From: an uncultured Bacillales bacterium
Lineage (GTDB): Bacteria > Bacillota_I > Bacilli_A > RF39 > UBA660
Reading direction: 5' to 3'
Assembly (NCBI GenBank): GCA_947165475.1
Contig: CAMVAN010000001.1
Location: forward strand, 1 to 55,407
Length of the DNA: 55,407 bases
The translations under genes were made by a program, and so were the position numbers. Positions 2,252 through 42,420 of this stretch are shown in pieces; positions within the stretch are counted from its first letter, which is position 1; each line of letters starts with the position of its first letter. The notes under the pieces were generated by a model. It had not been told where the DNA came from. It was given only the letters and a program-made list of their open reading frames with translations, and made no database searches.

Positions 2252-2296
2252 CTCCTTATATATTATATCATCTAATAATTTAATATTAAAGACTTA

Positions 2297-2320
2297 GAGA
2301 CTATGATTTCCCATAGTCTC
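2297..2320 (-). terminator. Hairpin downstream of the last gene of the large operon (candidate intrinsic terminator)
   Basis: gagactatg / catagtctc form a 9-bp perfect stem with a 6-nt loop, 21 nt after the stop at 2341. The downstream tract UAAGUCUUUAAUAUU is only moderately U-rich. Confidence 0.4.
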
Positions 2321-2340
2321 CAGCCTCACAAACATTTATA

Positions 2341-2904
2341 TTAATATAGTCCTTGAATCTTTTTTAAATCAGCTTTTGATAAATCAGATAATATCCATTT
2401 ATCACCTTGCTTATATAAGTTAAATGTTATTTGGTATTCTTCTCTAAGATTATATTTTGATATAACATCCAACTTATATTCAATTTCATCAGACACAGTC
2501 TTAAATTCTTCTTTATGATTCTCAACATATGTAGAAGCTTTTTCATATGCAGCACTAATATCTATAGTACTAATTTGAACATTTAAAACTGCATCATGCT
2601 CACTAATAGTAGTATCTTCATTATCAATAATATTATAATTGATTTGTTCATATTTAAACTTAACGATTCCCTCATATCTTTCTTTTTGTATATTACTTAA
2701 CTCATCATCAAATGGATATTTAATTTCTTTAACAATAGATTCATCAAGTTTCTTATACTTTTCCATATATTCTTTTACTAATTCTCTAGGATTCTTATTT
2801 TCACCAAAATGCTTATTGTTTAGTAAAAAAACAATTAAAACAATCATTAATATAATTATTACAATTAGCGCAAATAGAATTTTAGGTTTCTTTTTCAAAT
2901 TCAT
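2341..2904 (-). CDS. Single-pass membrane protein with a ~150-aa extracytoplasmic domain; last gene of the operon
   Basis: Track ORF. The TM segment is ILFALIVIIILMIVLIVFLL. The start overlaps the stop of the 3245-aa gene by 4 nt (ATGA), and a GGGAGAAG RBS lies upstream. Confidence 0.7.
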   Translation of the reverse strand: MNLKKKPKILFALIVIIILMIVLIVFLLNNKHFGENKNPRELVKEYMEKYKKLDESIVKEIKYPFDDELSNIQKERYEGIVKFKYEQINYNIIDNEDTTISEHDAVLNVQISTIDISAAYEKASTYVENHKEEFKTVSDEIEYKLDVISKYNLREEYQITFNLYKQGDKWILSDLSKADLKKIQGLY

Positions 2905-5900
2905 CTTCTCTTCTCCCTTATAACAAACTTAATATTAAATAACCATAGTACAAAGAATACTACTATACCTAATGTTATAAAACCAAATATATAAAGAATA
3001 CCGATAGCTACATTGGCTTTTGTATTCTTACTATCAATATAAAAACTTATTAACTCTGGTCTACTATATATTTTTTCATTTTCAGTTTCTTGATTATTGT
3101 CTTCAATCAACTGTTTCAAATCAACAACTTCATAATTATCAGATATACTATTATAATAAGTGATATACTTTCCTTTTTGAATAACATATCCTTCAGATGA
3201 AGAATTCTTACTATTATTACTATCACTCACAACTTTTTTAGAAGAATCACGTTCAGTAATATATCTTCCATGCTTATCTTTTACAATAGAATTATTTTGA
3301 AGAAGCTCTTTTAAATTAACTGCATCTTGATAATTACTATTATTCTTCTCAATCACTCCTAAAGTAGTATATGAACTTTGATTTTTCTTTGCATAAGTTG
3401 CAAAAGAAATCTTTTTAGTAATCTTTTCACTTAATATTTCTTTACCAGTTCTATAATCAAATACCAATACTTTACCGGATTCATACATCATCACAACATA
3501 ACTTGAATCCGTATTTAAGTTATTACTCATATAAACAATTTCTTCATTTTTAAACTTGTCAGGAGTTAAAATTTTATCTTTAATATTTAAAAGTTTATGA
3601 TTATCTAATAAAACAGTAGATATTTCTTTTCCTTGATAACTATCAATAATTATTCCATATAAATTTCTATCTAAATCTTTATCAATTATTTCAATTCTAT
3701 TATCTTTAACATATATTATATTATCATATACATTACTAGAATCTTTAGATTCAATTATAGAATACAATCCATATGTATTAATCTTTGTTTTTTCATATTT
3801 AAATTCATATAAAGGTTTTGACTCATCATACATAGAAAATTCCAAACCATTTTGATTAGATAACTTTTTATTTGTACTTAAATCATAAACATCTAAGCTA
3901 TTTGTTAATAAATAATGATCATAAACATGTAAAGCATCAGAATATTCATTAGTATTACCTTTTAACTTTCCTTCGTAAATATAAGCATACTTATCATCAA
4001 ATGTGGTAACCAAATTCTTAAGTTCATCTGCAGTCCAAGTTTCTTCCTTTGTATTTAATCCATCAGTTATCACTAGTCTTATATCATCTTTATAATTATA
4101 CCTAAAAGTATAAGTCCTTTTTGATATTGGTTGATCTTCTAATTTAATCTTTCCTGAATAAATAGAGAAATACGTAGATTCATCTAAATTACTAAAATCA
4201 AGATTAATAGAATCAACTCCACTAGAATAAACTTTAAATTCTGGCATAATATGTAAGCCATATCTAGAAACTCCTGTACTTTTAAAATGAACTTCAGCAG
4301 TTGGTAAAGGTATATCATCATAAGTTGAGTAATAGCTCTTTAATCTTGGATACATTCCAGAAGAAAGTGTTGAAAAATCATAATAAGATGTGGAAAGTCC
4401 TGCATTAGTATAATTCTTTTGAACTTTCATTTGTTCCGATGTTAAAGTCTTACCAGCTTGAATAGAGTTTATTCCTGGAACATTCATAACAGGGACATCA
4501 TTAATTGTACTACCTTCATATACAGAAAATCTAGATACTGTTTCAGTATATTCCTTATCAAATGGAGTATATATACCAACATGACTATCTTCTCCAGTAG
4601 AATTAACATTTACCGCAATAACAGTATTATAGAACATTTTGTCTGTTAATTGCATTGGAGCATATCCAGTATAACCACCAACAAAATCCTCACCAGTAAC
4701 TTCAGTATTTGCAAGTAAAAACTGATGAGTAATACCTGAATAAGAGTTATTAGTTGGATCTACATTATTAATATATCCATAAGCACCACCAACATAGTTT
4801 TTACCTTTAACTTTAGCATTCAAAACAGTATAATACGTACGGAAAAATGTTCCATACCCAGTATAACCACCAACTTTTGTATTTCCATTTACTTCAACAT
4901 TATATCCATAAGAATAATTCATGTTAGCACCATAATTATATCCATAGAATCCACCAGTTGAATCTCCAACACTATTAACTTTAGTATTTTTTACCGTAAT
5001 TCTATTTATAGTATTACCTTGTTTAATACCTGCAACACCACCAGTATACTGTCCACTTGCAGATAATTGATTTACTTCTACATTCTCAACTAAAGCTCTA
5101 TCAACTCCATAATATAGATTTCCAGTAAGACCACCAACATACATCTGACCATTAGCATTAACGACCGTATCTAAAATATCGACATATGCTACTCCATGTT
5201 CATAAATATATCCAGAAAATCCGCCAATATTATATCCAGAAGATTCCTCAGGTAACGGAAGACCATTTATTGTAGAATTCTTTATAGAAGAATGGCTTGA
5301 TCCTCCCAAACCAAATACACCACCAACAAAAGACAAACCAGATACGTTCATATCTTCAACAGTATAATAAAAATCACGAACTGGATTAGAATAATTTTTA
5401 GATCCTATAACCCCACCTACATAGTTATTACCAGTAACAGTACATCCTTTTGCATTAACAGTACTAATATCAACTGTATTTGCTTGACCAATAAATCCAC
5501 CAACATAATTTGATCCAGTTATGTTATTACCTTCAATACTAACATTTTTAATATCTAAACCACTATTTCTAGCTATTGGACCAACAAATATAATATTTGG
5601 AGCATTTATAGTTACATTTTTAAATTTAACATTCTCAACATCACCATAATTAATAACAACTAATCCAAAAGAAATTCCATCTGCATCATCAATTTTTTGA
5701 TAAGTACTATTTAGGGTAATATTTTCAAAAGATACATTACTCATATTATTAGTAATGGAAGAAATAAGACCAGAATAATCACTAGAAATTGTTACATTAA
5801 TATTTTTAATTGTATGCATCTCACCATTTATTCCTTCAAGTCTTCCAAAAGAAACATTAGTTTTTACATTTGTTTTTCCAGCAAAATCGATATCATTTGT

Positions 5901-8900
5901 CAAACGATAATTTTCGTGAGTATGTTCATCAACTGCTTGCCAATCTTCAAATTTTGCTAAATCTCTATAAAATCTTAAGTTCTCAATTACTACTGACTTC
6001 CGATAGTTTTCCTCTTTTCCATTTTCTTCATAAACAATATTCTTTAATACATAGTTATCATAGTATCTCGTAGGTTTTACTCTTAGGTTTGCAACGGTTG
6101 TTCCATCTGCAGTAGAAATATTACTGCTTAATATTTGTAAATAATCAAACTCTAATTCTTTAACTTCTAAATTATTAGGATTATTAATTACCATATATAA
6201 ATAAGCATTATCTGCAGAAACTTCTTTTTGAACATCCAAAACATTAAACTTTTCTAATACCAACGGAATATCCCTCTGATTTGCAAGTAACTCTCCAGTA
6301 CCTGAATTTATTAATTTTGGTAAAGATTTATCTAAATCTTCATAATAAAACTGATCACCAAAATCTAAAACATCAATATATGTATCCCTCTCTTGTAATT
6401 GTTCAGTAGTTAAAAATTTTTCATAGTCAATATGACCAGAAATATATCCATTAAATGGTTGATATTCCCATACATAGTTATTTTGAAAGTTGCTCAATTT
6501 CATTCCTGTAGTTCTTCCTACAAGATCTCCTAAATAAGGAGAACTAACTGCTCCAATAGCTAATGTATAGCTTACATCTGTCGAATTTGGTACTCCAACG
6601 ATTCCTCCAGTATATGGCATATCAGTTGTAACATCAACTGCTGACCACACATGACTTACGATTCCACTATTTGAACCTACTATTCCTCCAGTATATATAG
6701 TAGAAGATTCAATTCTACCAGTAGCATAAGAATAAGATACACTTCCACTTCCAAGTTGTCCTACAAGTCCACCAATACCAAATGAAGCATATATATCTGA
6801 AGCATCAATAAAGACATCATTAGCAAAACAATTTCTTACCTGAAGCATACTTCCAGTACCAACTAAAGCCCCAATTCTTATATTATGCTTATTTGCCGTA
6901 TTAATATTTTGAAAATCTGTAACTGAGCTATTATCTATCATCGTATCATAAGCATATCCAATAAAGCCACCAACATAATATCGTCCACCAACTCTAGCGT
7001 GTTTCATATGAACATTATTAATTCTTGCTCCACTAGTTGAACTATAAACAAATCCACCATAATCAGTACTATCTGTTTTAGTAAAATTTTCGATATTAAG
7101 ATTTTCTAAAGTACCTGCAAGAATATAAATCAAACCTGTTCCAACATCTATTCGAACATTTTTAATAGTATGTCCATCACCATTTATTTTTCCTACGAAA
7201 GTCTCTTCGATTACAAAATTCGATGCATCAACTTCACTAAAATCAAGATCGTTCTTTAATATGTAATTTTGTTCACGATTATTATTAATATTTTTCCAAT
7301 CATTTAAATTATAAATAGGATAATACAATGAAAAATCAATTGATCGTTCAAATTCACCATAATCTCTTGTAGTAGAAAAATTTAAACTTCCGACAGATAC
7401 TATCTTTCTTAAATAATATCTTGAGGTATATTTAATTGGATCAGATACCTTAATTTGTACATTTGATATTTCTCTATCATCCTCTTGAGATAAAATCTCT
7501 ACTGTTCCAATATCTTTTATACCAATTTCTGTAATTTTTTCATGAGCTGGATTATTAACTCTTACTTCAATAATTGCAGAGTCACCATCATTACTAATTT
7601 CTTTTGCCGAAGTAACATCTAATAAATCTCTATCCTGTACCTCTGGTAAAGGAATCCAATCTTGATTAGGCATACAATCATTCAATATTACTTGTGGATA
7701 ATATCCTAAACGAACAAACTTATCTACTTCAAATCCTTTATTATCATTCAATACTTTATCTTGGAATTCAGCATCATATAATGCTAATTTACTAATTTTT
7801 GTACTATAAACTCCGTCTCCACCATATGTTTTATCAGAAGCATAAAACATATTATCTACACTAATATTACCACTATAGCCACCAATATTAGGATCTTCAG
7901 TAATTGGATTTGTATTAACCTTTTTAGGATCCTCAACAGAATATACATTTTTAATAGAACCAGCATATGAGAAACCAATTAAATTTCCTACTCCCTCATT
8001 TTGTATTGAACCGTCTTTTTCAACTGAAATAAGTGAAAAAATATTTTGAACAAAAGAAGAACTTGAAGAATATGTAACAAAAACTCCTACTTCCTTATGC
8101 TCATAACTACTAGGCTTCTCAAAATAAGCATATATGTTTTCACCATAGGCATAGCCATTCATTAATAATCCACCATTATAATTAACAAGTAAGCCACTCC
8201 AAGCACTTGCAGACATTTGAGCCTCTGTATGTATAACAAAGTTTTTGATTGTTCCATAATTACTATGTGCTAATAAACTATTATTTACATTAGGAACTTT
8301 TGTCGCTTCTTTTAATGTCACAAACACATTATCAAACGTACCATAACTATACTGAACAACCCCATATAAGTTTGACTTTGATGTCTCATTATCAGCATAT
8401 ACATCTAAAACTAGGTTTTTAATAATTGAACTACTCCTAGTTCGATAAATTACGTAATTCGGTCTATTCACAACATTGTATATCAATTTATGTCCTTGAA
8501 AATCAATTTCGCCATAAAAATCATATCCTATATACCTATTTATATTTCTTATATCCAAATCATTTAATACGATATATCTTCCATTTGTATGCATTTCAAA
8601 AAAGTCAGTAACTGTTTTAATACTTCTTATTTCTGCATTTGCATCAAATTCTACAAAATCAATATTATAAAAACGATTTCTTACTTTTACTGATAAATAT
8701 ATCTTATACTTTTTATATTTAGTAACAGCATATTTTTTAGTTTCATTAATTGCTCGATGATTTGTTAAATCATAATGAAGTGTGTCAACAAGTTTATCAC
8801 CTATATAAACTCTTAAATAATAATCATTAGTTGGTATTTCATGTCTAGTATCATCCATATTTATATTAAGATTAGCCTGATAAGTATTATTTTCTTGATA

Positions 8901-11900
8901 AGGAATATATTTATTATCATAACTATCACTAAATTCATTACCATAAGCAACACAACCTAAATGACCAGATATATATGATGAACCTCCAGAACCTCCTCCA
9001 GAACTATTGTTAGAAGGGAATCCTCCATAGAATCCACCACCTGCTCCTCCAGTATCAGTCTTAGTTGTTACATTAACTGCATATCCAAAAGCAGAACCAT
9101 ATGTCTGTGTAGCAAAATAAGAACGAGTTAGAACACCATTTATATAAGTACCATCACTAGATAAAGCACCACCTGCTCCTCCTGAGCCATCATTAGTACC
9201 CCATAATGTTCCAGTAAGATCATCAGTTCCACCACCACCGGCGGCTACCATTATTCTTGACTTCAACGATTCAGATTCATTCCATTCGCCACCTATAAGT
9301 CTAACATCAGTAGCACCACCTCCTGAACCAGAATTGGCGTTACCTCCGTTTCCACCACCATTATATCCACCAAGAGGGCCTTTATAAGAATTGGTTCCAG
9401 AGCCATAAACTCCTGCTCCTCCTACGTAAATATATATTGGAACATGAACTTTTAGTTGTATATCACCTCTTGTATAAGCACCACGTCCAGCATGACATGC
9501 AATACTTTGATCTTCTCCAGATGTGTTGGTACCATCTCCTCCTGCCGCACCCCATAATTCTATTCTATAAGTAGAAGTACTTGGAGGAGTAAACATTTGA
9601 TAACTCCCTGTATAATCAAATTCAAAAACCTGATTTGTCTTCAAATTAGTTATTCTAGCATGACCATTACCATAATTACCAACAGTAGTTACCTCTCCAG
9701 ATCTATAAGATGGCATAATCTCATCGCCTGACATCATCATTGTATTAGTAAACTTCATTCCTGATGAATGATAAGAAAGAGATTCATCTTTCGCAGCATC
9801 TATAGCCAAATCATAAGATCTAATTTGAATATTTTTAAATAAAACATCAGTTCTGGTATTTGTAGTATTAGTCTCTGCTATTAAAAAACCAATATATGGA
9901 TTTACCATCATTATTTCCATACTATAACTAGTCCAATCAGTTTTAGATAAATTATCAAGCTTATATGATTGTGTGTTTTGAAAATTATTACTAATATATA
10001 CTGGTGCAGTATTTTCAGTATCTTCATGATACTTAGCTTCAAAAGTAATTTTTATAATATGTTTATGTGCCTCAGGTAAATAATAAGAATAATTTACATA
10101 ACCAGCTTTTGCTGAAAACCTTATTATATTGTTTTCAAAATCAAATGTTTTATTTGCCGTATATCCTTCTGTTCGAAACCTAGTTATATCATTTATATTA
10201 AACAAGTTTGCAGATAATGGTTGCCTTGAAATATCATTTAAAGAAATACTTCCGATTATTCCTTCATCAGTTCTAATCTTATCTTCTAATATTGCATAAT
10301 CTCCATAAAATGTTGAATTATCATATCCAATATTATAAGAATCTACATAATATCTAAAAGTATAAACCATTAAAGGTTCAAGTTTTTCATACGTAAGTCT
10401 AACAAAATCATCATTTTTATTTAATTCCGTTTTATCAATCATCTTACCAGTACTATCTCTTACTTCAACAGCAACAATATTACCATCTATTGCACCATCA
10501 ACATCAATAACTTTTACATCGAAATCAATAATAGAAGAATTAACAAATCTATTTTTAACCTCAACTCTTGCTTCTTTTTTATAAGTTTTAAATTTTTGTA
10601 CAGTTGAAATAACTTTTATAGATTCCTCTTTTTCACCCTGTGTAACACCAGATATATATTCAATCTTATATTCACTCTTAGAATATAATCCATATATATT
10701 AACATTAACATATTCATCATTAGATATTTTTACCAATTCACTTGGACTATATGAATGTGTAAATACTACCATCCCATCAGAATCATAAACATTAATAGTC
10801 ATACTAGTTAATAATTCTATTAATAAAGGACTTGTTGATCCTCTATCAATACTAGTTCTTATTGTAACACTTCCATCCGTTAAATTTTTAATAGAATTAT
10901 CAACCCTAAAATAGCCTAAAGAAGAAAGTGGTATAGTTGAAAACTTAAAGGACCCCAAAAGATTATTTTTTGCATTTCCTTTCCCATCATTTAAATTATA
11001 ATCACCATATACGTTAATTGTATAGTTTTGATTAGTATTTAATGTTGTCAATGAAATTGAATTTGTCTTTTTAGTTGGATCCATCAATCCACTAGCTATT
11101 TCTTTTCCAATAGCATCATAAATCACATATTTATAATTATTAATATTAATTTCATCTTCATTATTCAACACAGCAGTTAATTCTACTTTATTAACATCTA
11201 TAGAAACAATTTTAACTTGAGCAGATGGTGGTTTATTAGAAGTATACGTCTCACCATCAGCAATCTTTGATTTCAATATATTACCATACGAGTCAATTAA
11301 CTGAAAACTATATTTAATTTTACTCTTACTTGGTAATGAAGTAGGAGATTCATAACCAATAGTTTGCCCAGCTCTTAGCTTACTATTACTAGATGACGAG
11401 AAATAATAATCAGCATCATTTATTATTATTTTTATTTTATTAAGTCCATACAAAGCATCAGTTTTTAAATCTGATATTATTTTTACATTTTTCAATTCAA
11501 TTTTATCTGGATATATATCACCATTTTCATAAACAATTTCTATTGGAGCCAAATCATCAATAGAGCCCATTTTTATTTCCTGTTCGAAAAAACTCTGCTC
11601 AATTTTCTTATTCTCTTCATCATAATACTTAAAACTTCCTACTACATTATACGTAACACCTGGTTCAAGCGGTGAAACTATTATTTTTCCACCAGAGCCG
11701 TATACTTTTCTAAGAGAAATTTTACCATTTTTATAGAAATGAAAATTTATTCCTCCAATTATTCGATTAGCAGGATCATTAATCGTAATTTCTGAAGTAG
11801 CTGTATATGTCTTAGTTTCAAAAGGAATTACAGAAACCTTAGGCTTAACATACTTAACCTCCGGTTTTGGAGGTGCTGGAGTAGTTGTATTTTTCTCATC

Positions 11901-12638
11901 CTCTTCTTTAACTTCTTCAATAGCAGATTCTTCCTCAAATTCCTTCTTTATTATTTCAAATTTATATAATAGTGTTCTATATTTATATTTGTTATCGCCT
12001 ATCTGAATATAATCATTGAGATCAATTCCATTTATTTCCTTATATATTAATTCTTTTTCTTTTTTCTCATAATAATAATACTTAATTATACCTTCTTTAA
12101 AACTTAAAATACTATTTACAGGTATCGTATAAGCTTTAGAATTAGTTGTTAATGTCATCTCAAATAAATTAACAAATTCACCATTAACTAACTTTAAAAA
12201 CAAATAATCTTCAAGACTAGCTTGTTCATTATCATTATAGTTATATAGTTTACCATCAGTTATAGTTGCGTTTAAATAACAATCTTCTATATCAAAATTA
12301 GTTGTAAATAGTTTAGATTTTTCCGAAATATTAACTATTGCATCACCTGAATTTGTATATATAGGATAAGAATTATCCACATATGTCTTCTTATCTTCAC
12401 CAATATATATTTTATTCAAATTCTTATAAAAAACATCTTCATATTCAACTTTTTTTAAACATACTTTCTTTGCATGAACATTTTCATCTTCATTAAATAG
12501 TATATTTCTAATTTCATTAGTTGATATAAAATAACCTTCTGTAGATAAAATAGATGACATCGAAAATTTAGTTAGAACATAAACTACTCCAACAAAAATG
12601 ATTAATAATATACTAAAAATCAAATATTGTTTTTTCAT
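2901..12638 (-). CDS. Giant (3245 aa) bitopic surface protein: N-terminal TM, juxtamembrane domain, acidic/PAPPKP linker, FN3/Ig-like array, jelly-roll-like domain, ALK/LTK-type glycine-rich domain, three GLUG-type beta-helix modules, C-terminal beta-rich region and C-terminal TM
   Basis: Uninterrupted 9.7-kb ORF with an AGGAGG RBS. The N-terminal TM is YLIFSILLIIFVGVVYVL. The C-terminal TM VAIGILYIFGFITLGIVVFFVLWLF is followed by an IREKRR tail, and there is no LPXTG. The Gly-rich block is YRIELWGAAGGDG..IYIYVGGAG..GGGNGGNANSGSGGGATD..AAGGGGTDD..GGAGGGFYGG. More than 15 (V/T/I)GG(F/I/V/L/Y)xG repeats are present. Three module caps are LNDLDIRN..FQGHKL, LKNDLDFSEV..GDGHTIKN and LTNDIDFAGK..GEMHTIKN. 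Confidence 0.9.
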   Translation of the reverse strand: MKKQYLIFSILLIIFVGVVYVLTKFSMSSILSTEGYFISTNEIRNILFNEDENVHAKKVCLKKVEYEDVFYKNLNKIYIGEDKKTYVDNSYPIYTNSGDAIVNISEKSKLFTTNFDIEDCYLNATITDGKLYNYNDNEQASLEDYLFLKLVNGEFVNLFEMTLTTNSKAYTIPVNSILSFKEGIIKYYYYEKKEKELIYKEINGIDLNDYIQIGDNKYKYRTLLYKFEIIKKEFEEESAIEEVKEEDEKNTTTPAPPKPEVKYVKPKVSVIPFETKTYTATSEITINDPANRIIGGINFHFYKNGKISLRKVYGSGGKIIVSPLEPGVTYNVVGSFKYYDEENKKIEQSFFEQEIKMGSIDDLAPIEIVYENGDIYPDKIELKNVKIISDLKTDALYGLNKIKIIINDADYYFSSSSNSKLRAGQTIGYESPTSLPSKSKIKYSFQLIDSYGNILKSKIADGETYTSNKPPSAQVKIVSIDVNKVELTAVLNNEDEININNYKYVIYDAIGKEIASGLMDPTKKTNSISLTTLNTNQNYTINVYGDYNLNDGKGNAKNNLLGSFKFSTIPLSSLGYFRVDNSIKNLTDGSVTIRTSIDRGSTSPLLIELLTSMTINVYDSDGMVVFTHSYSPSELVKISNDEYVNVNIYGLYSKSEYKIEYISGVTQGEKEESIKVISTVQKFKTYKKEARVEVKNRFVNSSIIDFDVKVIDVDGAIDGNIVAVEVRDSTGKMIDKTELNKNDDFVRLTYEKLEPLMVYTFRYYVDSYNIGYDNSTFYGDYAILEDKIRTDEGIIGSISLNDISRQPLSANLFNINDITRFRTEGYTANKTFDFENNIIRFSAKAGYVNYSYYLPEAHKHIIKITFEAKYHEDTENTAPVYISNNFQNTQSYKLDNLSKTDWTSYSMEIMMVNPYIGFLIAETNTTNTRTDVLFKNIQIRSYDLAIDAAKDESLSYHSSGMKFTNTMMMSGDEIMPSYRSGEVTTVGNYGNGHARITNLKTNQVFEFDYTGSYQMFTPPSTSTYRIELWGAAGGDGTNTSGEDQSIACHAGRGAYTRGDIQLKVHVPIYIYVGGAGVYGSGTNSYKGPLGGYNGGGNGGNANSGSGGGATDVRLIGGEWNESESLKSRIMVAAGGGGTDDLTGTLWGTNDGSGGAGGALSSDGTYINGVLTRSYFATQTYGSAFGYAVNVTTKTDTGGAGGGFYGGFPSNNSSGGGSGGSSYISGHLGCVAYGNEFSDSYDNKYIPYQENNTYQANLNINMDDTRHEIPTNDYYLRVYIGDKLVDTLHYDLTNHRAINETKKYAVTKYKKYKIYLSVKVRNRFYNIDFVEFDANAEIRSIKTVTDFFEMHTNGRYIVLNDLDIRNINRYIGYDFYGEIDFQGHKLIYNVVNRPNYVIYRTRSSSIIKNLVLDVYADNETSKSNLYGVVQYSYGTFDNVFVTLKEATKVPNVNNSLLAHSNYGTIKNFVIHTEAQMSASAWSGLLVNYNGGLLMNGYAYGENIYAYFEKPSSYEHKEVGVFVTYSSSSSFVQNIFSLISVEKDGSIQNEGVGNLIGFSYAGSIKNVYSVEDPKKVNTNPITEDPNIGGYSGNISVDNMFYASDKTYGGDGVYSTKISKLALYDAEFQDKVLNDNKGFEVDKFVRLGYYPQVILNDCMPNQDWIPLPEVQDRDLLDVTSAKEISNDGDSAIIEVRVNNPAHEKITEIGIKDIGTVEILSQEDDREISNVQIKVSDPIKYTSRYYLRKIVSVGSLNFSTTRDYGEFERSIDFSLYYPIYNLNDWKNINNNREQNYILKNDLDFSEVDASNFVIEETFVGKINGDGHTIKNVRIDVGTGLIYILAGTLENLNIENFTKTDSTDYGGFVYSSTSGARINNVHMKHARVGGRYYVGGFIGYAYDTMIDNSSVTDFQNINTANKHNIRIGALVGTGSMLQVRNCFANDVFIDASDIYASFGIGGLVGQLGSGSVSYSYATGRIESSTIYTGGIVGSNSGIVSHVWSAVDVTTDMPYTGGIVGVPNSTDVSYTLAIGAVSSPYLGDLVGRTTGMKLSNFQNNYVWEYQPFNGYISGHIDYEKFLTTEQLQERDTYIDVLDFGDQFYYEDLDKSLPKLINSGTGELLANQRDIPLVLEKFNVLDVQKEVSADNAYLYMVINNPNNLEVKELEFDYLQILSSNISTADGTTVANLRVKPTRYYDNYVLKNIVYEENGKEENYRKSVVIENLRFYRDLAKFEDWQAVDEHTHENYRLTNDIDFAGKTNVKTNVSFGRLEGINGEMHTIKNINVTISSDYSGLISSITNNMSNVSFENITLNSTYQKIDDADGISFGLVVINYGDVENVKFKNVTINAPNIIFVGPIARNSGLDIKNVSIEGNNITGSNYVGGFIGQANTVDISTVNAKGCTVTGNNYVGGVIGSKNYSNPVRDFYYTVEDMNVSGLSFVGGVFGLGGSSHSSIKNSTINGLPLPEESSGYNIGGFSGYIYEHGVAYVDILDTVVNANGQMYVGGLTGNLYYGVDRALVENVEVNQLSASGQYTGGVAGIKQGNTINRITVKNTKVNSVGDSTGGFYGYNYGANMNYSYGYNVEVNGNTKVGGYTGYGTFFRTYYTVLNAKVKGKNYVGGAYGYINNVDPTNNSYSGITHQFLLANTEVTGEDFVGGYTGYAPMQLTDKMFYNTVIAVNVNSTGEDSHVGIYTPFDKEYTETVSRFSVYEGSTINDVPVMNVPGINSIQAGKTLTSEQMKVQKNYTNAGLSTSYYDFSTLSSGMYPRLKSYYSTYDDIPLPTAEVHFKSTGVSRYGLHIMPEFKVYSSGVDSINLDFSNLDESTYFSIYSGKIKLEDQPISKRTYTFRYNYKDDIRLVITDGLNTKEETWTADELKNLVTTFDDKYAYIYEGKLKGNTNEYSDALHVYDHYLLTNSLDVYDLSTNKKLSNQNGLEFSMYDESKPLYEFKYEKTKINTYGLYSIIESKDSSNVYDNIIYVKDNRIEIIDKDLDRNLYGIIIDSYQGKEISTVLLDNHKLLNIKDKILTPDKFKNEEIVYMSNNLNTDSSYVVMMYESGKVLVFDYRTGKEILSEKITKKISFATYAKKNQSSYTTLGVIEKNNSNYQDAVNLKELLQNNSIVKDKHGRYITERDSSKKVVSDSNNSKNSSSEGYVIQKGKYITYYNSISDNYEVVDLKQLIEDNNQETENEKIYSRPELISFYIDSKNTKANVAIGILYIFGFITLGIVVFFVLWLFNIKFVIREKRR

Positions 12639-12648
12639 AATTTACCTC

Positions 12649-13354
12649 CTAAGAATAATTCTTTAATTTACCCACCTTTTTTATAAATAATCTTGATGTT
12701 CCATTGTAGTACATTAAGTCAAGTGTTCCATTTACCGTAAAACTTTCATTCTTAATTACAATTTCCTCATTTGTTCCTACAACTTCCATTTTATCATTAT
12801 CATAATCATATATTTCCACATATTCATTATAGTTATCGATTCTCAAATAAGAGAAAGAAGATAAATTATATATTTGTCCATTAACACTTACTGTATAATC
12901 ACCAACTAAAAAATATAAATCATATCCATCATAAATAATACAATCATTCAATTGCTTATCAACAACTCGATCTTTTAATTTAACATCATTATACTCATTT
13001 TTAGTCATATAAGAAAAGTAATTTATTTTAAACTGTTCACCAGTTCTTGGAAAAATAATTGCCATATTTTTTGGAAATACAACTTTTTTTTCTTTAGCAT
13101 AATAAACAGGTGTAGTATCTAATGTCACTCTTTTCTTAAGACCATCAAAATTAATAGTAGTAATATCATTGTTCTTATTTAACTCAACATTTCCCACATA
13201 TTTAAGCTTGGTATCACCTGTATACTGAAACAAAGATGTTTTCTTTATAACAATTTTATCTTCTCTCTTTATTAAAAATTGGAATACTGCTACAACAACT
13301 ACAATTAATAAAATAGATACCATCACAATTATCCTATAGTTAAATTTTATTTTT

Positions 13355-13362
<8 letters not shown>
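12649..13362 (-). CDS. Single-pass membrane protein (237 aa) with a beta-rich extracytoplasmic domain
   Basis: Track ORF. The TM segment is IIVMVSILLIVVVVAVFQFLI, with an AGGAGGAT RBS. It overlaps the upstream gene by 8 nt and ends 10 nt before the giant gene. Confidence 0.75.
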
Positions 13363-16251
<2,889 letters not shown>

Positions 16252-17592: not shown

Positions 17593-18363
17593 CTATTTTA
17601 TACAAAAATCATACATTTTGTTTTTATACTTTATCATAATTCCACGATAAATTTTATTATCATATATGGTTTGTATTTTATCGCTTATATAATCATAATT
17701 CTTATTCTTATCACTTACATATACATAAACAAATGGATCCTCATTAGCAAGCATCTTATCTAAGTATGGTCGAAATGCAATAATATCCATCTTTTTATTT
17801 TTGTTAATAAAACCATTTACTATTTCTTGATTATTTTTAAACAAATCCCTTAAAATCTTCTCTTGTTCTTTAGCATTTTTAGAAGATATTTCATAGCAAT
17901 ACTTGCTATTTAACTTATCTTTATAACTCTTAAGTTCAATATACTTATCAAAGTTTTGATTATTGGATATTTTCTCAATAAATCTTTTTATTAAAGCCTC
18001 TTCATTTAAATTAAATCTTTCATCAATAGTTTTTACTTGTTGTAATATATTTTCGTCTAGATAATCAACTTTTTTAATATTAACTTCATATTCAGATGAA
18101 TCGGCATTACTTTCTATTATCTCTTCCCCACTATTATCTTCTTCTTTTTCACTATTCCTTTTTGCTATTTCTTCATTTAACTCATTTAACTGATTTTCTT
18201 TTTCTTGTATAACATTATCATAAACTTGCACCTTATCCAAATAGTATTCTTTTGAAGCCTTATTAATCTTTTCCACTATCCTTCTTAAAAAAGAAAACAT
18301 TAACAATATAAGCAAAAGAATAAATATAAATAATATTACTAAAACAACAATCTCAGTATTCAT
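17593..18363 (-). CDS. b-subunit-like peripheral-stalk candidate: N-terminal TM, coiled coil and an extra C-terminal globular domain (256 aa)
   Basis: It occupies the atpF/atpH position between c and alpha. The TM segment is IVVLVILFIFILLLILLMFSFL, followed by a charged helical region QEKENQLNELNEEIAKRNSEKEE. I see no recognisable delta/OSCP sequence, so the call rests on position and architecture only. Confidence 0.6.
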   Translation of the reverse strand: MNTEIVVLVILFIFILLLILLMFSFLRRIVEKINKASKEYYLDKVQVYDNVIQEKENQLNELNEEIAKRNSEKEEDNSGEEIIESNADSSEYEVNIKKVDYLDENILQQVKTIDERFNLNEEALIKRFIEKISNNQNFDKYIELKSYKDKLNSKYCYEISSKNAKEQEKILRDLFKNNQEIVNGFINKNKKMDIIAFRPYLDKMLANEDPFVYVYVSDKNKNYDYISDKIQTIYDNKIYRGIMIKYKNKMYDFCIK

Positions 18364-18369
18364 AAACTA

Positions 18370-20048
<1,679 letters not shown>

Positions 20049-20050
20049 AT

Positions 20051-23000
20051 TTACGCTCCTAAAGCAATATATTTATGCTCTATATTAGTATCCATAACTG
20101 TTATATTTCCTGATGCGAATTGCATTTGAACTAAATATATGCCATAACCCTGTAAAGAAACATCAGGAATTGTAAACGTATATGCTTGACGTCCACCAAT
20201 AGAAACTTCTTTTGGAACAAAATCACTTGATCCTGAATAAGTAGCGCCTGTCTCTTCGTTATAAATTGTATAAGATATTTTATCAATCTTTGTCAATTTA
20301 GTACTATTCATAAATATTAAATCAATATAAGATGAATTATTTGAATTTTGAATTGAAGAAATATCTCCTACGTCGATACCAGTAGAATTTGTCACTCTTG
20401 TTGAAAATTTTGAAACCATCATAGTAGGATTACCATTATTTTCTGTGTCAGCTGAATAATAAATACATAATGTATAAGATTCTTGTGAATTGATTCCCTC
20501 AAATACAAATTTATGTGCACTATCATAAATGCTAGTTCTTACATCTACATATTTTTCTGGAGTTATATTTTCTCCTTTAGAATTATAAAATTCAATTGTA
20601 TAATCTTCACTATTTATAATCTTCCAAGTATCATAAATAGTCACAGTAAATTCAACATAATCATCATCACTATAAATAGAACTTCTTACATTAAATACTG
20701 GATTACTTAATTTTCTTAAATTAAATACATAATCACCTGGATTTTCAAGTTTAATTTCATGATCTCCATCATCTGAATTAGTAATAACAATTGGTTGAAT
20801 TATCAATTCATAACTATCTCCAAAAACAAATGGTCCTCCTGGATTACATGGAACTTTTACTGTCATAAGTTCAGTAAATCTTGTACTACTTGGAATTGTT
20901 ATATCCATTAGTTCTTTATCATAATTTCCAGTTTCAGGATTACGTGTTAATTTATATAATTTATACTCAATTTTATCATAACCTACTAATTTACCTAATC
21001 TATACGTAAATACCAAATTCTTTTCATCGTATTTTACGAAATTATAATTAAGACCAATATTAGTAATTGGAACAGATGTCAAAGTATCAAAATAATATGT
21101 CCTTCCTTCAACATCTTTGTCTAAATCATATAAATAATGCTTTTCATAATCACCGTTTTTATTCTTTAAATTAGCATATATTTTTATTGCATATCTCTGA
21201 TTTGGTAATAAACCATCAACATCAAAACCAGAATCAAATTGATCTACAGTAAATGAAACAGTTTTTAATAAATCCATTTTAGTTGCATATTCATCTGTTT
21301 CATAAATTTCTGCATACATTTCATTATTTTCTAATTCAGAATGTTCAAAGCCAAACATAGATCCTTTAATTAAAACATCTCTAATTCCAGGAACAAGTGT
21401 TGATTTACCTTCTTCATCACTTAAACGAATTCCGGGTATTAATTGATCAAATACAAATGAACTTTCTCCAGAAGATACAGCCCTATTCACAGATAATCCC
21501 TTAGGTAAATAATAAGTATAATTATAAGAAATACCTTGCCTATCAGGAATAAAAGGAATAATTAAATTATAATTATTGGTAAAACTATTAAATTTAATTT
21601 CTTTTTTACCAATCTCTTTACTAATCAAACTACCCATTGCAATCTTTCCATTATTATATAAACTTTGATTATAATTAATATAATAATAATCACCAATTCC
21701 ACTATTATATTCATTTCCAAGAGATTGCAAAGCAAAAACATCTCCAGGTAAATCAAAACCTATACGTTCATCATCATAGTAAACATCAACTAACATATTT
21801 ACTTTTTTACCTCTGAAAGCAGCAATTTCATACAAATCTACAATTGCGAGATTACTATCAGAAATAACTCTATAATCTTTAACTACTTTTTTACCATCAC
21901 ACTCAAAAGTAATCTTTAAACCAGCAATCTTTTGATATAAATAATTAGATCTATCATAACCAGCAATAGAAATAAGAGCCCTATTCGTTTCCATATCTAG
22001 AGTATAAGAATATTCATTGTCATATCTCGGATTTGCAAAATACTGAAATAAAACCTCTTTATCACTTATAGAATCAGCTTTCTTAATTAATGCCTGAGAA
22101 GCATAAACATATAAAAAACTTGAATGTAAATTATCTAATGTTACCTCCTCATAAGTACTAGTCTTTTTTACCCTAGAGGAACTAACTGGTTCTAGTGTTT
22201 CTTTTGAAGTACCAACTTTAGCAAAAAATTCATCTTTATACAAAGCATTATCAACATCATTAAGTGTATATTTTAATGTTATTTCTCCGATATCAGAAGA
22301 AGAAGGATAAGTAGTAATAATAGCTTCCTGCTTAGGAACTTCAATAACTTTTGATTTTAATATAACATCTTCTTCAACTGGATAATGAGTCAATTCATCA
22401 CCATCACCAAGTTTTAAATATGCCTCATAAGTGAAATAATAATTATGTCCCCTTCGTAAATCAGTATCTTCCGTATCATATGGAGTACCATAATCAAAAT
22501 ATATTTCAGTAAAATCAATAGTACCATCAGCACTAACAACATACCTAAAATCGGCATTTTCAATTTTTTTCTTAGTATCTGCATCATACACATGATAATC
22601 AATATATTTAGCATAACGTCTAGTATTATCGTATAGTGCCTTAATCTTAATGCCTACAATAGTATTACCATCCAAATTAGGATCTTGATGCTCTGAATCA
22701 GCATTTCTGTTTCTTATATATTGATATTCAATTGCATCATCAGTATCCACAGGATTATCAGGTGCTAAATTATTAATCTTAACAGTATACACATTGTTAA
22801 TTATTTCTATAGGATTCTTAAAATCAGAATAATCATACGCCTCAGATATAAGTATAGTTATATATTCACTCTTAATATCAGAATTTGAAAGTCCGAAAAA
22901 TGAAGGAGATAATGCAAATCCTTTATCATAATAGTCTTTCTTTAAATCACTATAATATTCACGTAAATCTCTATCAACAAGTTTTAATGTTTTAATTATC

Positions 23001-25318
23001 TTTCCATTTACGCTTCTTCCTTCAAAAACAGTAAAAGTAATACCAGTTAAAGTTTTTGCCTCAAGAGTATTATCATACCCTATTCCTTGCATTAACTGTG
23101 CAGAAATCTTAAAAGCTAATGTAGGACTTTCAACAGAAGAAAAAGTAGCTTGTATAGGATTTGTTGGATTAGTCACTACCGTAACACTTCCAATATAATA
23201 AGAATCAATTATTTCATTTCCATCCTGAAAATCAACAGTTCCATAAACAGCTATATTATATGATTCATTCTGTCTTAAATTATTAATATCAATTGGAATA
23301 ACCAGATTACCCTCAGTATTAAATTGTTTTGTTGTTCCAATAGAATTTGTATATACAATTTTCATTTTTTTAGTTAAATCAATTGTATTAGCTAAATCAG
23401 TTATTAAAATTGTTCCTTTTATTCTTTCAAAAGTTACCTCTTCAGGTCTCCAAGTTAAATAAGCACCTTCAACTCCATCTAACTGCATAGTACCACTTAA
23501 TGGAGTAACATACTCAATATATTTTTCATTATCATAAAATTCAGTAACAACACGATAAATATATGGTACACCTCTTTGAAGTGATTTTCCATCAACATCA
23601 ACATCAACAGATCCCTTAGCTTTCTTTTCAATCACTTTAACAGGTTGTGCATTTTCATTATAATTTCTAGCATCATATATTTCATATAAATAAGACTCTA
23701 TTCCATTATCAGGATCCTTTATATTATTAAGTGTTAAAGAGAAAGTACTACTTTTCTTATCTATAGAAAAGGATACATTTCCAAAAGTTGGTCTTGATTT
23801 TAATGTCTTAAAACTAGTTTCAATATTATTTTCAGCACCAATTACATAATTATCATATAGAATATTATCAATTAATATTCCATATTTTGTATTTCTATCT
23901 AAATCAGTAAAAAGGGCAGAATAACCTGTACCTTTTTTTGCAGTCTCTGCATCAACAACCTTTTCTTCAAGAACTTCACCATTTTTATTAAGTAATGAAA
24001 TATTACAACTTTTTACTTTTGAGTAACCATCAAATTTAACATTAAAAGATACTTCATTACTTGTTACATATTCTTTTTCAAGATTAATTCCAAGTGATTC
24101 AGTAGTAAACAATTGTGATATCACATCTGAAACATATTCAACATCATCTCTTGTATAACTAACTCTAGTAGTTAAACTATATGTTAAATTAGGTTCCAAA
24201 TTAGGAACTTCTATATCTATACTATATTGACCACTTTCAAATGTCTCTTCATAAACATGTTTTCCTGTAGCATTTTCTGTAACCATTACAATTGTCTTAC
24301 CTCTCATCAAAGAATCCGGATCCTTTATTTTTATACTAGCATTCATCATATTTGACGAAATTTCAATATCTTCAATTGTAGCAGTAGGAACAGTAGAAGA
24401 TTTTTCATCAACTGCAACTTCTTCTCCAATAGTTGTTTCCCCACCTGCAACCGAATCACCACCATTATTAATGCTTTCAGAATTTTCATTTTTATCATTA
24501 TTAATGATATTTCCAAATTCATCATATTGAACATCTTCATCTTTAGTTTCTTCTTTTTCTTCAACATATTCAGAAATATTTATATTATCTTGTGAATTAA
24601 TTATCATTTGATCCAATGTAAATATAGGTTCTTTATCTTTTAAAATATAATGATTATCAAGTTTTAAAACAATACCTTCCCCAATAACCAAATAATTGTC
24701 TTTTCCAATCGTTTGAACATTTACTTTTTTATTATCAAGTCTTACAACTTCTTCATCAATAATACTTAATTCAATATAGTTATCACCAACTTCAACTTCT
24801 CTACTATCATCTAGTCTTAATTTCATTCCATCGGCAACAATTAAATACTTATTAGTATCAGACTTAACAATAAACCTTTTAAATTTTATAATATTATTTA
24901 AATTTTCTAATGAATAATAAGATTCTTTTTTTTCTAACAAATTATTTTGAAAAATATTATAATATTTTAAATCGTTACTCAATATATCATCTATACTTAC
25001 AATAACAGCTTTTTTTAAAACTCCAATTGAATCATTTTCATAATGAACAAAAGAAGAAATAGGTACCCTTGTATTTTTACCTTCTGTATTCGAAAAAACA
25101 ATATTATCATCATAAGATTTAGAATATTTAGTTTCAGCATTAAAATAAGAAATCTGAGCATTATTATCAACATTTCCTGTTAACTTTTGACTATTGATAA
25201 TATAACCTGATTCCTTCAACACTTGAACATTCTTATTGTTTTTTTCAATTGCAGCATAAAACATAACACCAGTAATAATCAAAAATAAAACCACAATAAC
25301 CATTATTTTACTCTTCAT
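20051..25318 (-). CDS. Giant (about 1755 aa from Met-23) N-terminally anchored surface protein made of tandem FN3/Ig-like beta domains; first gene of the operon
   Basis: Uninterrupted ORF. I prefer the start at 25318 (MKSKIMVIVVLFLIITGVMFYAAI) because the track start at 25384 lies inside the predicted -35 box. An acidic linker EEKEETKDEDVQYDEF..GGDSVAGGETT follows the juxtamembrane domain. Repeated ~100-aa units carry the L(E/N)PN(L/T)xY signature. There is no C-terminal TM and no LPXTG. Confidence 0.85.
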   Translation of the reverse strand: MKSKIMVIVVLFLIITGVMFYAAIEKNNKNVQVLKESGYIINSQKLTGNVDNNAQISYFNAETKYSKSYDDNIVFSNTEGKNTRVPISSFVHYENDSIGVLKKAVIVSIDDILSNDLKYYNIFQNNLLEKKESYYSLENLNNIIKFKRFIVKSDTNKYLIVADGMKLRLDDSREVEVGDNYIELSIIDEEVVRLDNKKVNVQTIGKDNYLVIGEGIVLKLDNHYILKDKEPIFTLDQMIINSQDNINISEYVEEKEETKDEDVQYDEFGNIINNDKNENSESINNGGDSVAGGETTIGEEVAVDEKSSTVPTATIEDIEISSNMMNASIKIKDPDSLMRGKTIVMVTENATGKHVYEETFESGQYSIDIEVPNLEPNLTYSLTTRVSYTRDDVEYVSDVISQLFTTESLGINLEKEYVTSNEVSFNVKFDGYSKVKSCNISLLNKNGEVLEEKVVDAETAKKGTGYSALFTDLDRNTKYGILIDNILYDNYVIGAENNIETSFKTLKSRPTFGNVSFSIDKKSSTFSLTLNNIKDPDNGIESYLYEIYDARNYNENAQPVKVIEKKAKGSVDVDVDGKSLQRGVPYIYRVVTEFYDNEKYIEYVTPLSGTMQLDGVEGAYLTWRPEEVTFERIKGTILITDLANTIDLTKKMKIVYTNSIGTTKQFNTEGNLVIPIDINNLRQNESYNIAVYGTVDFQDGNEIIDSYYIGSVTVVTNPTNPIQATFSSVESPTLAFKISAQLMQGIGYDNTLEAKTLTGITFTVFEGRSVNGKIIKTLKLVDRDLREYYSDLKKDYYDKGFALSPSFFGLSNSDIKSEYITILISEAYDYSDFKNPIEIINNVYTVKINNLAPDNPVDTDDAIEYQYIRNRNADSEHQDPNLDGNTIVGIKIKALYDNTRRYAKYIDYHVYDADTKKKIENADFRYVVSADGTIDFTEIYFDYGTPYDTEDTDLRRGHNYYFTYEAYLKLGDGDELTHYPVEEDVILKSKVIEVPKQEAIITTYPSSSDIGEITLKYTLNDVDNALYKDEFFAKVGTSKETLEPVSSSRVKKTSTYEEVTLDNLHSSFLYVYASQALIKKADSISDKEVLFQYFANPRYDNEYSYTLDMETNRALISIAGYDRSNYLYQKIAGLKITFECDGKKVVKDYRVISDSNLAIVDLYEIAAFRGKKVNMLVDVYYDDERIGFDLPGDVFALQSLGNEYNSGIGDYYYINYNQSLYNNGKIAMGSLISKEIGKKEIKFNSFTNNYNLIIPFIPDRQGISYNYTYYLPKGLSVNRAVSSGESSFVFDQLIPGIRLSDEEGKSTLVPGIRDVLIKGSMFGFEHSELENNEMYAEIYETDEYATKMDLLKTVSFTVDQFDSGFDVDGLLPNQRYAIKIYANLKNKNGDYEKHYLYDLDKDVEGRTYYFDTLTSVPITNIGLNYNFVKYDEKNLVFTYRLGKLVGYDKIEYKLYKLTRNPETGNYDKELMDITIPSSTRFTELMTVKVPCNPGGPFVFGDSYELIIQPIVITNSDDGDHEIKLENPGDYVFNLRKLSNPVFNVRSSIYSDDDYVEFTVTIYDTWKIINSEDYTIEFYNSKGENITPEKYVDVRTSIYDSAHKFVFEGINSQESYTLCIYYSADTENNGNPTMMVSKFSTRVTNSTGIDVGDISSIQNSNNSSYIDLIFMNSTKLTKIDKISYTIYNEETGATYSGSSDFVPKEVSIGGRQAYTFTIPDVSLQGYGIYLVQMQFASGNITVMDTNIEHKYIALGA

Positions 25319-25355: not shown

Positions 25356-25384
25356 ATTATAAATAAAAAGCAAAAAATTATCAA
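25356..25384 (-). promoter_or_regulatory. Sigma-A-type promoter of the large operon
   Basis: On the minus strand: TTGATA (25384-25379), a 17-nt spacer, then TATAAT (25361-25356). This lies about 38 nt upstream of the ATG at 25318. Confidence 0.55.
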
Positions 25385-42392: not shown

Positions 42393-42420
42393 ATCACACC
42401 TCATAAAAATAATAACAATA

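Follow-up and report, generated by a model that had tools for sequence, protein, structure and literature searches.

What is the gene of a very large surface protein doing inside an operon for an F-type ATPase? The question is raised by a 55,407-nucleotide (nt) stretch of DNA from an uncultured Bacillales bacterium (GTDB lineage Bacillota_I; Bacilli_A; RF39; UBA660), namely positions 1 to 55,407 of contig CAMVAN010000001.1 in GenBank assembly GCA_947165475.1; this whole stretch is referred to as the window. A minus-strand operon of 12 genes in the window interleaves genes for F1-like and Fo-like subunits with five genes for surface proteins, the largest of which encodes a protein of 3245 amino acids (aa), referred to as the giant. 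The answer that we favor, with modest confidence, is that a rotary ATPase uncoupled from ion flow mechanically actuates giant surface proteins, and that the giant, anchored in the membrane at both of its ends, is the main extracellular component. We favor it because the operon is tight, its synteny is conserved, the ATPase is constrained, the ion site is lost and the GRNPE loop is kept, dual anchoring is found throughout the family and there is a precedent in the mycoplasmas. In these organisms, a Type 2 (G1) ATPase has been put forward as the driver of gliding in Mycoplasma mobile via the giant surface proteins Gli521 and Gli349 (PMC11864180), and the Type 3 F1-like X0 ATPase is required for the MIB-MIP system and co-purifies with it (PMC12994834). 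The first-pass annotation of the window had considered the giant to be compatible with force transmission between two membrane components, and this idea would now gain a candidate motor, the F1-like ATPase operon.

The 3245-aa open reading frame (ORF) proposed in that annotation is real: it is single and intact, and its stop codon, TGA, shares the sequence ATGA with the start codon of the following gene. Translation table 11 is appropriate, because the gene has 12 TGG codons and no in-frame TGA besides the stop. It contains no DNA-level tandem repeats, which rules out a recently expanded repeat adhesin. A Kyte-Doolittle scan (window of 19 residues, threshold of 1.6) of all 3245 residues found exactly two hydrophobic segments, at residues 1-32 and 3207-3242, and no other window reached the threshold. 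These segments hold the two predicted transmembrane (TM) helices, TM1 and TM2 (Table 1). The earlier claims of a hydrophobic helix at each terminus, and of a C-terminal helix followed by a basic tail with no sortase motif, have thus held up; the helix at residues 3210-3234 is followed by NIKFVIREKRR, and a loose LPXTG pattern was not found.

Double anchoring is a property of the family. A homologue search over 5.8 billion proteins returned 103 related giants with 25-80 % identity, none of which is named in the source databases. Both terminal hydrophobic segments are present in 88 of the 103, and the remaining homologues are truncated ORFs that end within the beta-helix or have no N-terminus. 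A second, independent exhaustive search, seeded with residues 1-235 of the giant only, gave 301 cluster representatives with the N-domain, which is located at the N-terminus in all 150 of the hits listed among them. Among the representatives from this search with 2800 aa or more, 73 of 75 have both helices, and none of these 75 has an internal hydrophobic helix. The two-helix arrangement is therefore not due to chance. The C-terminal tail in the 88 homologues has a median length of 10.5 aa and a median net charge of +4, and in many relatives it starts with an N-[IVLA]-K motif, often with K or R ahead of it. No LPXTG-like motif and no match to the loose pattern [LIVNS]P.[TSA][GNASD] appeared among the C-terminal 60 residues in any of the 88 full-length homologues, the giant included. 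The same loose pattern occurs in five of the 75 distant representatives, which is near a rough estimate, made by hand, of about 2-3 expected by chance.

The N-terminal helix requires a closer look, as it could be either an anchor or a signal peptide. Statistics on 162 full-length relatives indicate that a basic extension precedes TM1 (median 15 aa, up to about 50 aa, and at least 20 aa in 43 of the 162), and among the 88 close homologues the median net charge of this stretch is +4. The median length of the uncharged core is 21 aa, and no core has 17 aa or fewer. A cleavage-type AXA/VXA site follows TM1 in only 11 of the 162, and loose (-3,-1) sites are rarer after TM1 (71/162) than at random internal positions (126/162). 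In the largest subfamily the sequence KYSPIMNF comes right after TM1 and offers no usable cleavage site. Because of the basic extension, the long core, the few AXA/VXA sites and the below-random number of loose sites, TM1 of the family is probably an uncleaved signal anchor.

The giant itself is less typical. It has a short n-region, MKKQ, a core of 19 aa and, 3-12 residues past the core, three candidate sites of the loose (-3,-1) type, SMS|S, ILS|T and TEG|Y; the corresponding place in close relatives is occupied by LIA|Q or ILS|T. These features would fit a long Gram-positive signal peptide that is removed, so that the mature giant would be held by its C-terminal helix only. We regard this as quite improbable in view of the family statistics above. 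In addition, the conserved stretch S-I-L-S-T-E-G-Y runs into the first beta-strand of the N-domain (residues 35-38), and therefore its conservation is structural. Cleavage of the giant is accordingly unlikely, even though its short n-region and three loose sites, taken alone, would allow it, and TM1 of the giant would stay in place. The topology supported by these comparisons is a cytoplasmic N-terminus, an ectodomain of about 3180 aa and a cytoplasmic C-terminus.

The ATPase has lost what an ion pump needs. In the c-subunit-like protein an Ala lies opposite Ilyobacter tartaricus E65, which is the position of Escherichia coli D61. This came from a MAFFT alignment with E. coli, PS3 and I. tartaricus reference sequences, and the position was confirmed by a HMMER alignment to PDB 1yce. 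The 14 homologues aligned have A, T, N or S at the ion site, and none of the 15 sequences has an acidic residue in helix 2. The glycine-rich helix 1 is kept, and the GRNPE loop is invariant in the 15 sequences; in F-ATPases this loop contacts gamma and epsilon. No ORF of the operon matches the a-subunit family ATP-synt_A in Pfam or NCBIfam, and the operon has no gene for a separate delta subunit. A 176-aa protein with about five TM helices was considered as a cryptic a-subunit and rejected; it has no PDB match and no invariant membrane Arg. Pfam and NCBIfam do not match it either. By eye, the window protein and its homologues from L002 to L082 have a semi-conserved K or R in the middle of predicted helix 2 (12/17) and a conserved acidic residue in the motif YL.[ED]V (13/17).

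The catalytic machinery, however, is intact while the giants diverge. In the beta-like subunit the Walker A motif GGAGVGKT, the GERSREG catalytic core and the Walker B D-N are all invariant in 32 of 32 sequences. The alpha-like subunit has the SVSR arginine finger in 30 of 30 and a nearly invariant P-loop, GDK[KR]TGKT, the fifth residue of which is T in 28 of 30. Across loci, identity is 61-72 % for beta and 56-71 % for alpha, and it is as low as 27 % for the giants. Because the catalytic motifs are invariant and beta remains so similar while the giants diverge, the ATPase is predicted to be active and under strong constraint. With another residue in place of the c carboxylate in all 15 sequences, and with an a-subunit not found, it would not be a usual ion pump or ATP synthase; it looks like a complete rotor and stator that is unable to translocate ions in the known way.

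Most of the NCBIfam scores of these subunits are below the curated cutoffs. The alpha-like protein scores 397.6 bits against an atpA cutoff of 484 and is under the cutoff of every alpha model, gamma is far below its cutoff (57.9 versus 194 bits) and c has 35.7 bits against 71. The mycoplasma models MMOB1660/1670 and MSC_0619/0618 are also missed (376 versus 600, 378.8 versus 850, 305.9 versus 520 and 405.3 versus 570, respectively), with scores that are lower than those for atpA and atpD. The best PDB matches of the beta-like protein are F1 beta subunits at about 400 bits; M. mobile G1-beta (9io5), at 322 bits, is the last of 58 PDB matches with E 1e-40 or better. Some relatives have longer versions of these subunits. 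For example, the alpha-like protein exceeds 445 aa by 120-300 aa at L002/L003 (609 aa), L006 (746 aa), L039 (562 aa) and L072 (644 aa), and the beta-like subunit of L036 has 681 aa; these longer forms recall the N-terminal extension of M. mobile G1-beta that bridges motor dimers. Among 120 listed beta homologues, two are named ("F0F1 ATP synthase subunit beta" and "F-type H+-transporting ATPase subunit beta") and 118 are unnamed.

The association between the ATPase and the giants recurs in other genomes. The order [giant 1]-[~480]-[c]-[b-like]-[alpha]-[gamma]-[beta]-[epsilon]-[5TM]-[~240]-[giant], in which giant 1 is the 1755-aa surface protein at the head of the operon and numbers are lengths in aa, is kept in relatives whose giants are 42 %, 31 % and 27 % identical to that of the window. 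Scanning a genome collection with the single giant protein gave no relatives. A scan of species-representative genomes with an alignment of 12 sequences of residues 1330-1720 found 117 relatives, from which 77 loci were kept and 41 had enough upstream sequence to be evaluated. The 237-aa gene is directly upstream of the giant in 36 of the 41 loci, and the ATPase together with the 237-aa gene in 30 of the 41.

Several loci have other arrangements. The giants at L026, L043, L044, L080, L083, L084, L009 and L011 have no ATPase within 6 kb, and they are found with the 237-aa partner and sometimes with giant 1. L084 has the order [giant 1][474][237][giant], which looks like a cluster from which the ATPase genes were cut out. 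At L026 the upstream genes encode a bile-salt hydrolase and a collagen protein of the BclA-like type, and at L009, which has no recognized upstream partner, there are a dipeptidase, SerRS and two unknown proteins. Three tandem giant paralogues of about 2850 aa (L001, L004 and L005) are present in one lineage, and the complete 1.70-Mb chromosome OZ006978.1 has at least five giant loci (L049, L055, L056, L069 and L070), a large share of a small genome.

A number of points weigh against a rotary ATPase that moves the giants. The ATPase is not present in cis at 11 of the 41 evaluable loci (six have the 237-aa gene only, two a tandem giant and three nothing recognized), and therefore its link with the giant is frequent and not obligatory, unless the ATPase acts in trans. 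The beta-like subunit passes the NCBIfam atpD cutoff (476.8 versus 462.85), and databases label its close homologues as ordinary ATP synthase beta. The b-like and epsilon-like proteins are assigned from position and architecture only. It is not obvious how continuous rotation would be coupled to a doubly tethered protein. The hosts are all uncultured. Finally, if this were the sole ATPase of these genomes, a housekeeping role with an unusual ion chemistry would have to be reconsidered.

Some of these points could be taken to mean that the enzyme is simply a housekeeping F-type ATPase and that the giant is an unrelated adhesin or wall-spanning protein that shares its operon. The atpD score, the F0F1 ATP synthase beta annotation of close homologues in the source databases and the giants located away from any ATPase would agree with this, but we find it very hard to reconcile with a c-subunit that lacks the ion-binding carboxylate in all 15 sequences, the missing a-subunit and an alpha subunit that falls under every alpha cutoff. 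The interleaved order of surface and ATPase genes has also been kept while the giants diverged to 27 % identity, and the gene overlaps are typical of translational coupling. Taken together, such a housekeeping role is very improbable.

A dedicated motor for export, insertion or assembly, for which the giants would be cargo and later passive adhesins, deserves more weight, although we still consider it unlikely. F1 alpha and beta are homologous to the FliI/SctN export ATPases, which the window alpha and beta match as well, but the cluster keeps a full rotor-stator set (gamma, the epsilon-like protein, a c-ring protein with its GRNPE coupling loop and a b-like stalk) and has no export-gate homologues among its Pfam and NCBIfam matches. 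The giants are very large and have no classical cleavable signal peptides; signal-anchor proteins, however, are normally inserted by the signal recognition particle and Sec. The operon is just downstream of ffh, an adjacency observed in the window only. For the clusters of mycoplasmas, translocation was likewise one of two ideas put forward (PMC3369863).

Returning to the mechanical reading, the ATPase and the giants would form one complex, and the output of the ATPase would be mechanical. The motor core would consist of alpha3beta3-gamma-epsilon on a carboxylate-free c-ring, held by the b-like stalk, with the 5-TM protein replacing subunit a. ATP hydrolysis would turn or rock gamma/epsilon and the c-ring against the stator, and this motion would be handed on, inside the membrane, to TM helices in the giant and in its 237-, 474-, 187- and 1755-aa single-pass partners. 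The giant would be a bitopic "hairpin" that starts in the cytoplasm, with TM1 serving as an uncleaved signal anchor. Its ectodomain of about 3180 aa (N-domain, FN3 stalk, glycine-rich domain, two beta-helical regions and beta-propeller) would be long enough to reach across the thin wall, its length being roughly estimated at 50-100 nm, and TM2 and the basic tail would bring the chain back into the cytoplasm. The helices would then move or re-set the ectodomain, resulting in gliding, in attachment and release, or in the handling of a bound host or partner macromolecule.

The hosts are uncultured gut Bacilli, Firmicutes and Mollicutes known as metagenome-assembled genomes (MAGs), including "Mycoplasma sp. 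CAG:956" and three candidate genera, Coprovivens, Faecenecus and Pelethosoma. Coprovivens and Faecenecus are assigned to the order RF39, which is among several uncultured orders related to Mycoplasmatales for which thin walls are predicted and, for some, sporulation. The sortase genes srtA/B are reported to be absent from the related orders RFN20 and ML615J-28 (PMC10868615). A broader proposal is that gut Bacilli, including RF39, have an unrecognized organelle in which an F-type motor without ion translocation drives doubly anchored giants through a thin wall, either as a new engine for motility or attachment or as an ancestor of the mycoplasma Type 2/3 machines. We put this forward tentatively, as a possibility about which we have more doubt than belief. 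Our literature search found no description of such a cluster outside the mycoplasmas, Bacilli and RF39 included.

If the mechanical reading is correct, a mycoplasma-like surface machine would be present in sister lineages, some of them predicted to be walled and to sporulate, that occur in animal and human gut metagenomes. A form that keeps recognizable Fo parts, i.e., an ion-site-free c-ring and a membrane-anchored stalk, would be a structural intermediate between ATP synthase and the mycoplasma motors, and its simpler membrane partners, with single TM helices, would lend themselves to modeling and testing. Surface proteins of Gram-positive bacteria are not usually anchored at both ends, and this topology of the giant would offer a direct test of coupling to a membrane motor. 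There is also a practical aspect: the automatic annotation "F0F1 ATP synthase" may mislead metabolic reconstructions of RF39-type MAGs by wrongly crediting them with proton translocation.

The ectodomain has the extracytoplasmic, beta-rich character that the first-pass annotation had given it, as indicated by Pfam and PDB profile matches and by AlphaFold2. The domain-wise structure prediction that it had suggested was run on residues 1-560 (mean predicted local distance difference test, pLDDT, of 86.9) and 2690-3245 (pLDDT 80.2); the N-terminal part is beta-rich and FN3-like, and the C-terminal part has a beta-propeller and the terminal helix. A disordered linker is present at residues 235-260, and a small helical and beta region lies between the propeller and the terminal helix. 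Fold searches with both terminal models led to generic FN3 and beta-propeller folds, the propeller model matching AztD, WD40 and BamB-type propellers in Foldseek.

The glycine-rich domain matches PF12810 with 139.2 bits against a gathering cutoff of 24.5, a match at the domain level only, and its family profile matches the glycine-rich domain of ALK in the PDB with E 1e-5. In the precomputed Pfam annotation of the family, PF12810 is found in P0001-P0021 only, that is, in the closer relatives, and because of this restriction the domain is considered to be an accessory insertion. Residues 1002-1233 also match PHROGs 5811, 1589 and 18810, which are phage families of unknown function. The profile of the conserved core matches 7uvl_P (E 9e-20) and 3n6z (E 2e-5) in the PDB, with only the beta-helix region aligned. 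7UVL is the Gemella IgA1 protease (PMC9637739), and the core appears to be related to the beta-helix N-terminal domain of the Gram-positive IgA1 metalloproteases. A protease or toxin function is ruled out by the absence of the HExxH protease motif (not found in 87 of the 88 homologues) and by the absence of a catalytic-domain match for the giant in Pfam, NCBIfam or the PDB.

The operon extends from 25318 to 2341, and its neighboring genes are separated by 0-10 nt or overlap by 4-20 nt. Giant 1 was mechanically called from a TTG start at 25384 with 1777 aa; a promoter-like site lies inside this ORF, and therefore the ATG at 25318 (MKSKIMV...), which gives 1755 aa, is most likely the start. Giant 1 has no match in Pfam, NCBIfam, the PDB or PHROGs. 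Its homologues come first in the cluster in L002 and L006 and after the giant in some genomes; L007 has a cut 2184-aa gene at this position, unconfirmed as a homologue. Giant 1 and the 474-, 237- and 187-aa proteins, the four surface proteins beside the giant, are all single-pass. Weak profile similarities were detected between the 474-aa protein and the N-region of giant 1 (hhalign 81 %) and between the 237-aa protein and residues 122-194 of the giant (hhalign 73 %); paralogy among the single-pass proteins was not accepted on these two signals. The b-like gene is located between c and alpha, the place of b/delta in atp operons, and in the PDB its product has non-specific coiled-coil matches and no significant b or delta match. 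The sole PDB match of the epsilon-like family profile is an ATP synthase epsilon chain, at a non-significant E = 2.

Table 1. Positions of the features discussed in the text, in window coordinates.
Feature	Positions	Strand	Basis or remark
Promoter-like site, TTGATA + 17-nt spacer + TATAAT, 11/12 matches	25356..25384	-	Operon head
Giant 1, 1755 aa, N-terminal TM then ectodomain	20051..25318	-	No known domain
474-aa single-pass protein, N-terminal TM and ectodomain	18624..20048	-	Hydropathy and gene order
c-subunit-like, 81 aa, 2 TM	18370..18615	-	Pfam ATP-synt_C, E 6e-9
b-like stalk candidate, 256 aa, N-terminal TM, coiled coil and C-terminal globular domain	17593..18363	-	Architecture and position only
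F1 alpha-like, 445 aa	16255..17592	-	Pfam ATP-synt_ab, E 1e-73
F1 gamma-like, 255 aa	15484..16251	-	Pfam ATP-synt, E 1e-23
F1 beta-like catalytic subunit, 455 aa	14114..15481	-	476.8 bits versus atpD
Epsilon-like, 83 aa, beta-sandwich only	13882..14133	-	Position after beta
176-aa membrane protein, about 5 TM helices	13355..13885	-	No relative of known function detected
237-aa single-pass protein, directly upstream of giant	12649..13362	-	Most faithful companion of the giant
Giant, 3245 aa	2901..12638	-	One intact ORF, ATG start; eleventh of 12 operon genes and last large one
TM1 of giant, core YLIFSILLIIFVGVVYVLT, residues 5-23, preceded by n-region MKKQ	12570..12626	-	Hydropathy; AlphaFold2 helix 3-23
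Family-defining beta-rich N-domain, residues 25-226	11961..12566	-	AlphaFold2 block, pLDDT 68-95, mostly >85
Three FN3-like domains, residues 267-560	10959..11840	-	AlphaFold2; Foldseek to FN3 tandems, E about 3e-8
ALK/LTK-type glycine-rich domain, residues 1021-1251	8886..9578	-	Pfam PF12810, E 3e-40
Conserved core with GLUG beta-helix, about residues 1330-2100	6339..8651	-	Pfam Glug
Membrane-proximal beta-propeller, about residues 2801-3071	3426..4238	-	AlphaFold2 block, pLDDT mostly 85-95
TM2 of giant, core VAIGILYIFGFITLGIVVFFVLWLF, residues 3210-3234	2937..3011	-	Hydropathy; AlphaFold2 continuous helix 3206-3244
Basic, predicted cytoplasmic tail NIKFVIREKRR after TM2	2904..2936	-	Sequence
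187-aa single-pass protein, start overlaps giant stop	2341..2904	-	Follows the giant in closer relatives
Terminator-like hairpin, 12-bp stem, closes operon	2295..2322	-	Only one in operon
HerA-type ATPase, 786 aa	27617-29977	-	PADLOC HerA, E 1e-109; NCBIfam anti-phage HerA models below cutoffs
415-aa protein, no match	30089-31336	-	With the HerA-type gene, between ylxM and ffh
Class B RNase P RNA	42425-42763	-	287 bits, consistent with Bacillota

Elsewhere the window resembles an ordinary Bacillota chromosome, with ffh, ftsY, ylxM, RNase J, RNase Y, recA, recU, the class A penicillin-binding protein PBP1 and a Mur ligase. A phage or mobile-element origin is ruled out, because the PHROGs matches concern the glycine-rich domain only and the neighbors are housekeeping genes. 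ylxM and ffh are normally adjacent; the HerA-type gene and the 415-aa gene between them may be an inserted HerA-partner defence pair. The RNase P RNA overlaps the 5' part of the mechanically called ORF at 41898-42476, which was probably called too long.

How does the cluster compare with known systems? The giant resembles LPXTG adhesins in its large, modular, beta-rich ectodomain and in its C-terminal hydrophobic segment with a basic tail; unlike them, none of the 88 homologues has an LPXTG-type motif, and TM1 is probably an anchor and not a signal peptide. The giant shares with the M26 IgA1 metalloproteases (ZmpA-like) the beta-helix only, without the HExxH catalytic domain behind it. The ATPase genes have the order c - b-like - alpha - gamma - beta - epsilon-like, as in the F1Fo ATP synthase operon (atpBEFHAGDC), and the catalytic residues (P-loop, catalytic Glu and Arg finger), gamma and the R-N-P loop of the c hairpin are also in common. 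In contrast to ATP synthase, the window c has no essential Glu/Asp, the a-subunit and a separate delta were not found, alpha, gamma and c are under the equivalog cutoffs and the five surface-protein genes are interleaved. A more distant parallel is the GldLM rotary motor of the Bacteroidetes, which uses the proton-motive force and drives the giant adhesin SprB in cells with two membranes. Here, too, the output of a rotary motor in the membrane is the movement of a giant surface adhesin, but the sequences are unrelated and SprB is not anchored in the cytoplasmic membrane.

The mycoplasma Type 3 system is similar in that an atypical F-type ATPase lies beside, and is needed for, a surface system (MIB-MIP) that handles a host macromolecule, and this ATPase is proposed to carry conformational energy from one side of the membrane to the other (PMC12994834). 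The antibody-cleaving MIB-MIP partner could also be compared with the beta-helix of the giant, which is related to that of IgA1 metalloproteases. However, the gene order and the X0 components differ, the MSC_0618/0619 models are below cutoffs, neither MIB nor MIP has a homologue here and a protease motif is absent from the giant. The Type 3 alpha lacks the N-terminal helix, whereas the window alpha keeps its N-terminal region and a stalk candidate is present.

The likeness to M. mobile gliding extends to an F1-derived alpha/beta/gamma motor that is accompanied by surface giants and either exists beside ATP synthase or has diverged from it, and to a related host lineage. Gli349 has an N-terminal TM helix and Gli521 has C-terminal ones; in the window both ends of one chain carry a TM helix, and the cells are predicted to be walled. 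The M. mobile surface proteins (Gli123, Gli349 and Gli521) range from 1000 to >4000 aa and have terminal TM helices, and the proposed path, from ATP hydrolysis inside to force across the membrane to a giant leg outside, is the one that we propose for the window (PMC11864180). NCBIfam gave no sequence match to the Gli proteins. The window cluster differs in having a c homologue and a TM-anchored b-like stalk, a different gene order and no counterpart of the 12-TM protein, of the protein with two C-terminal TM helices or of the soluble GliD, and its beta lacks the N-terminal dimerization extension and is closer to genuine F1 beta than to G1-beta. How force crosses the membrane is still unsolved in the mycoplasma machines (PMC11864180, PMC12994834). 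The window cluster is thus best described as an F1-derived ATPase with surface proteins that would belong to neither Type 2 nor Type 3, because the accessory genes and family models of these types find no match in it. What it shares with both is an F1-like ATPase that is genetically linked to surface effectors and not to ion translocation.

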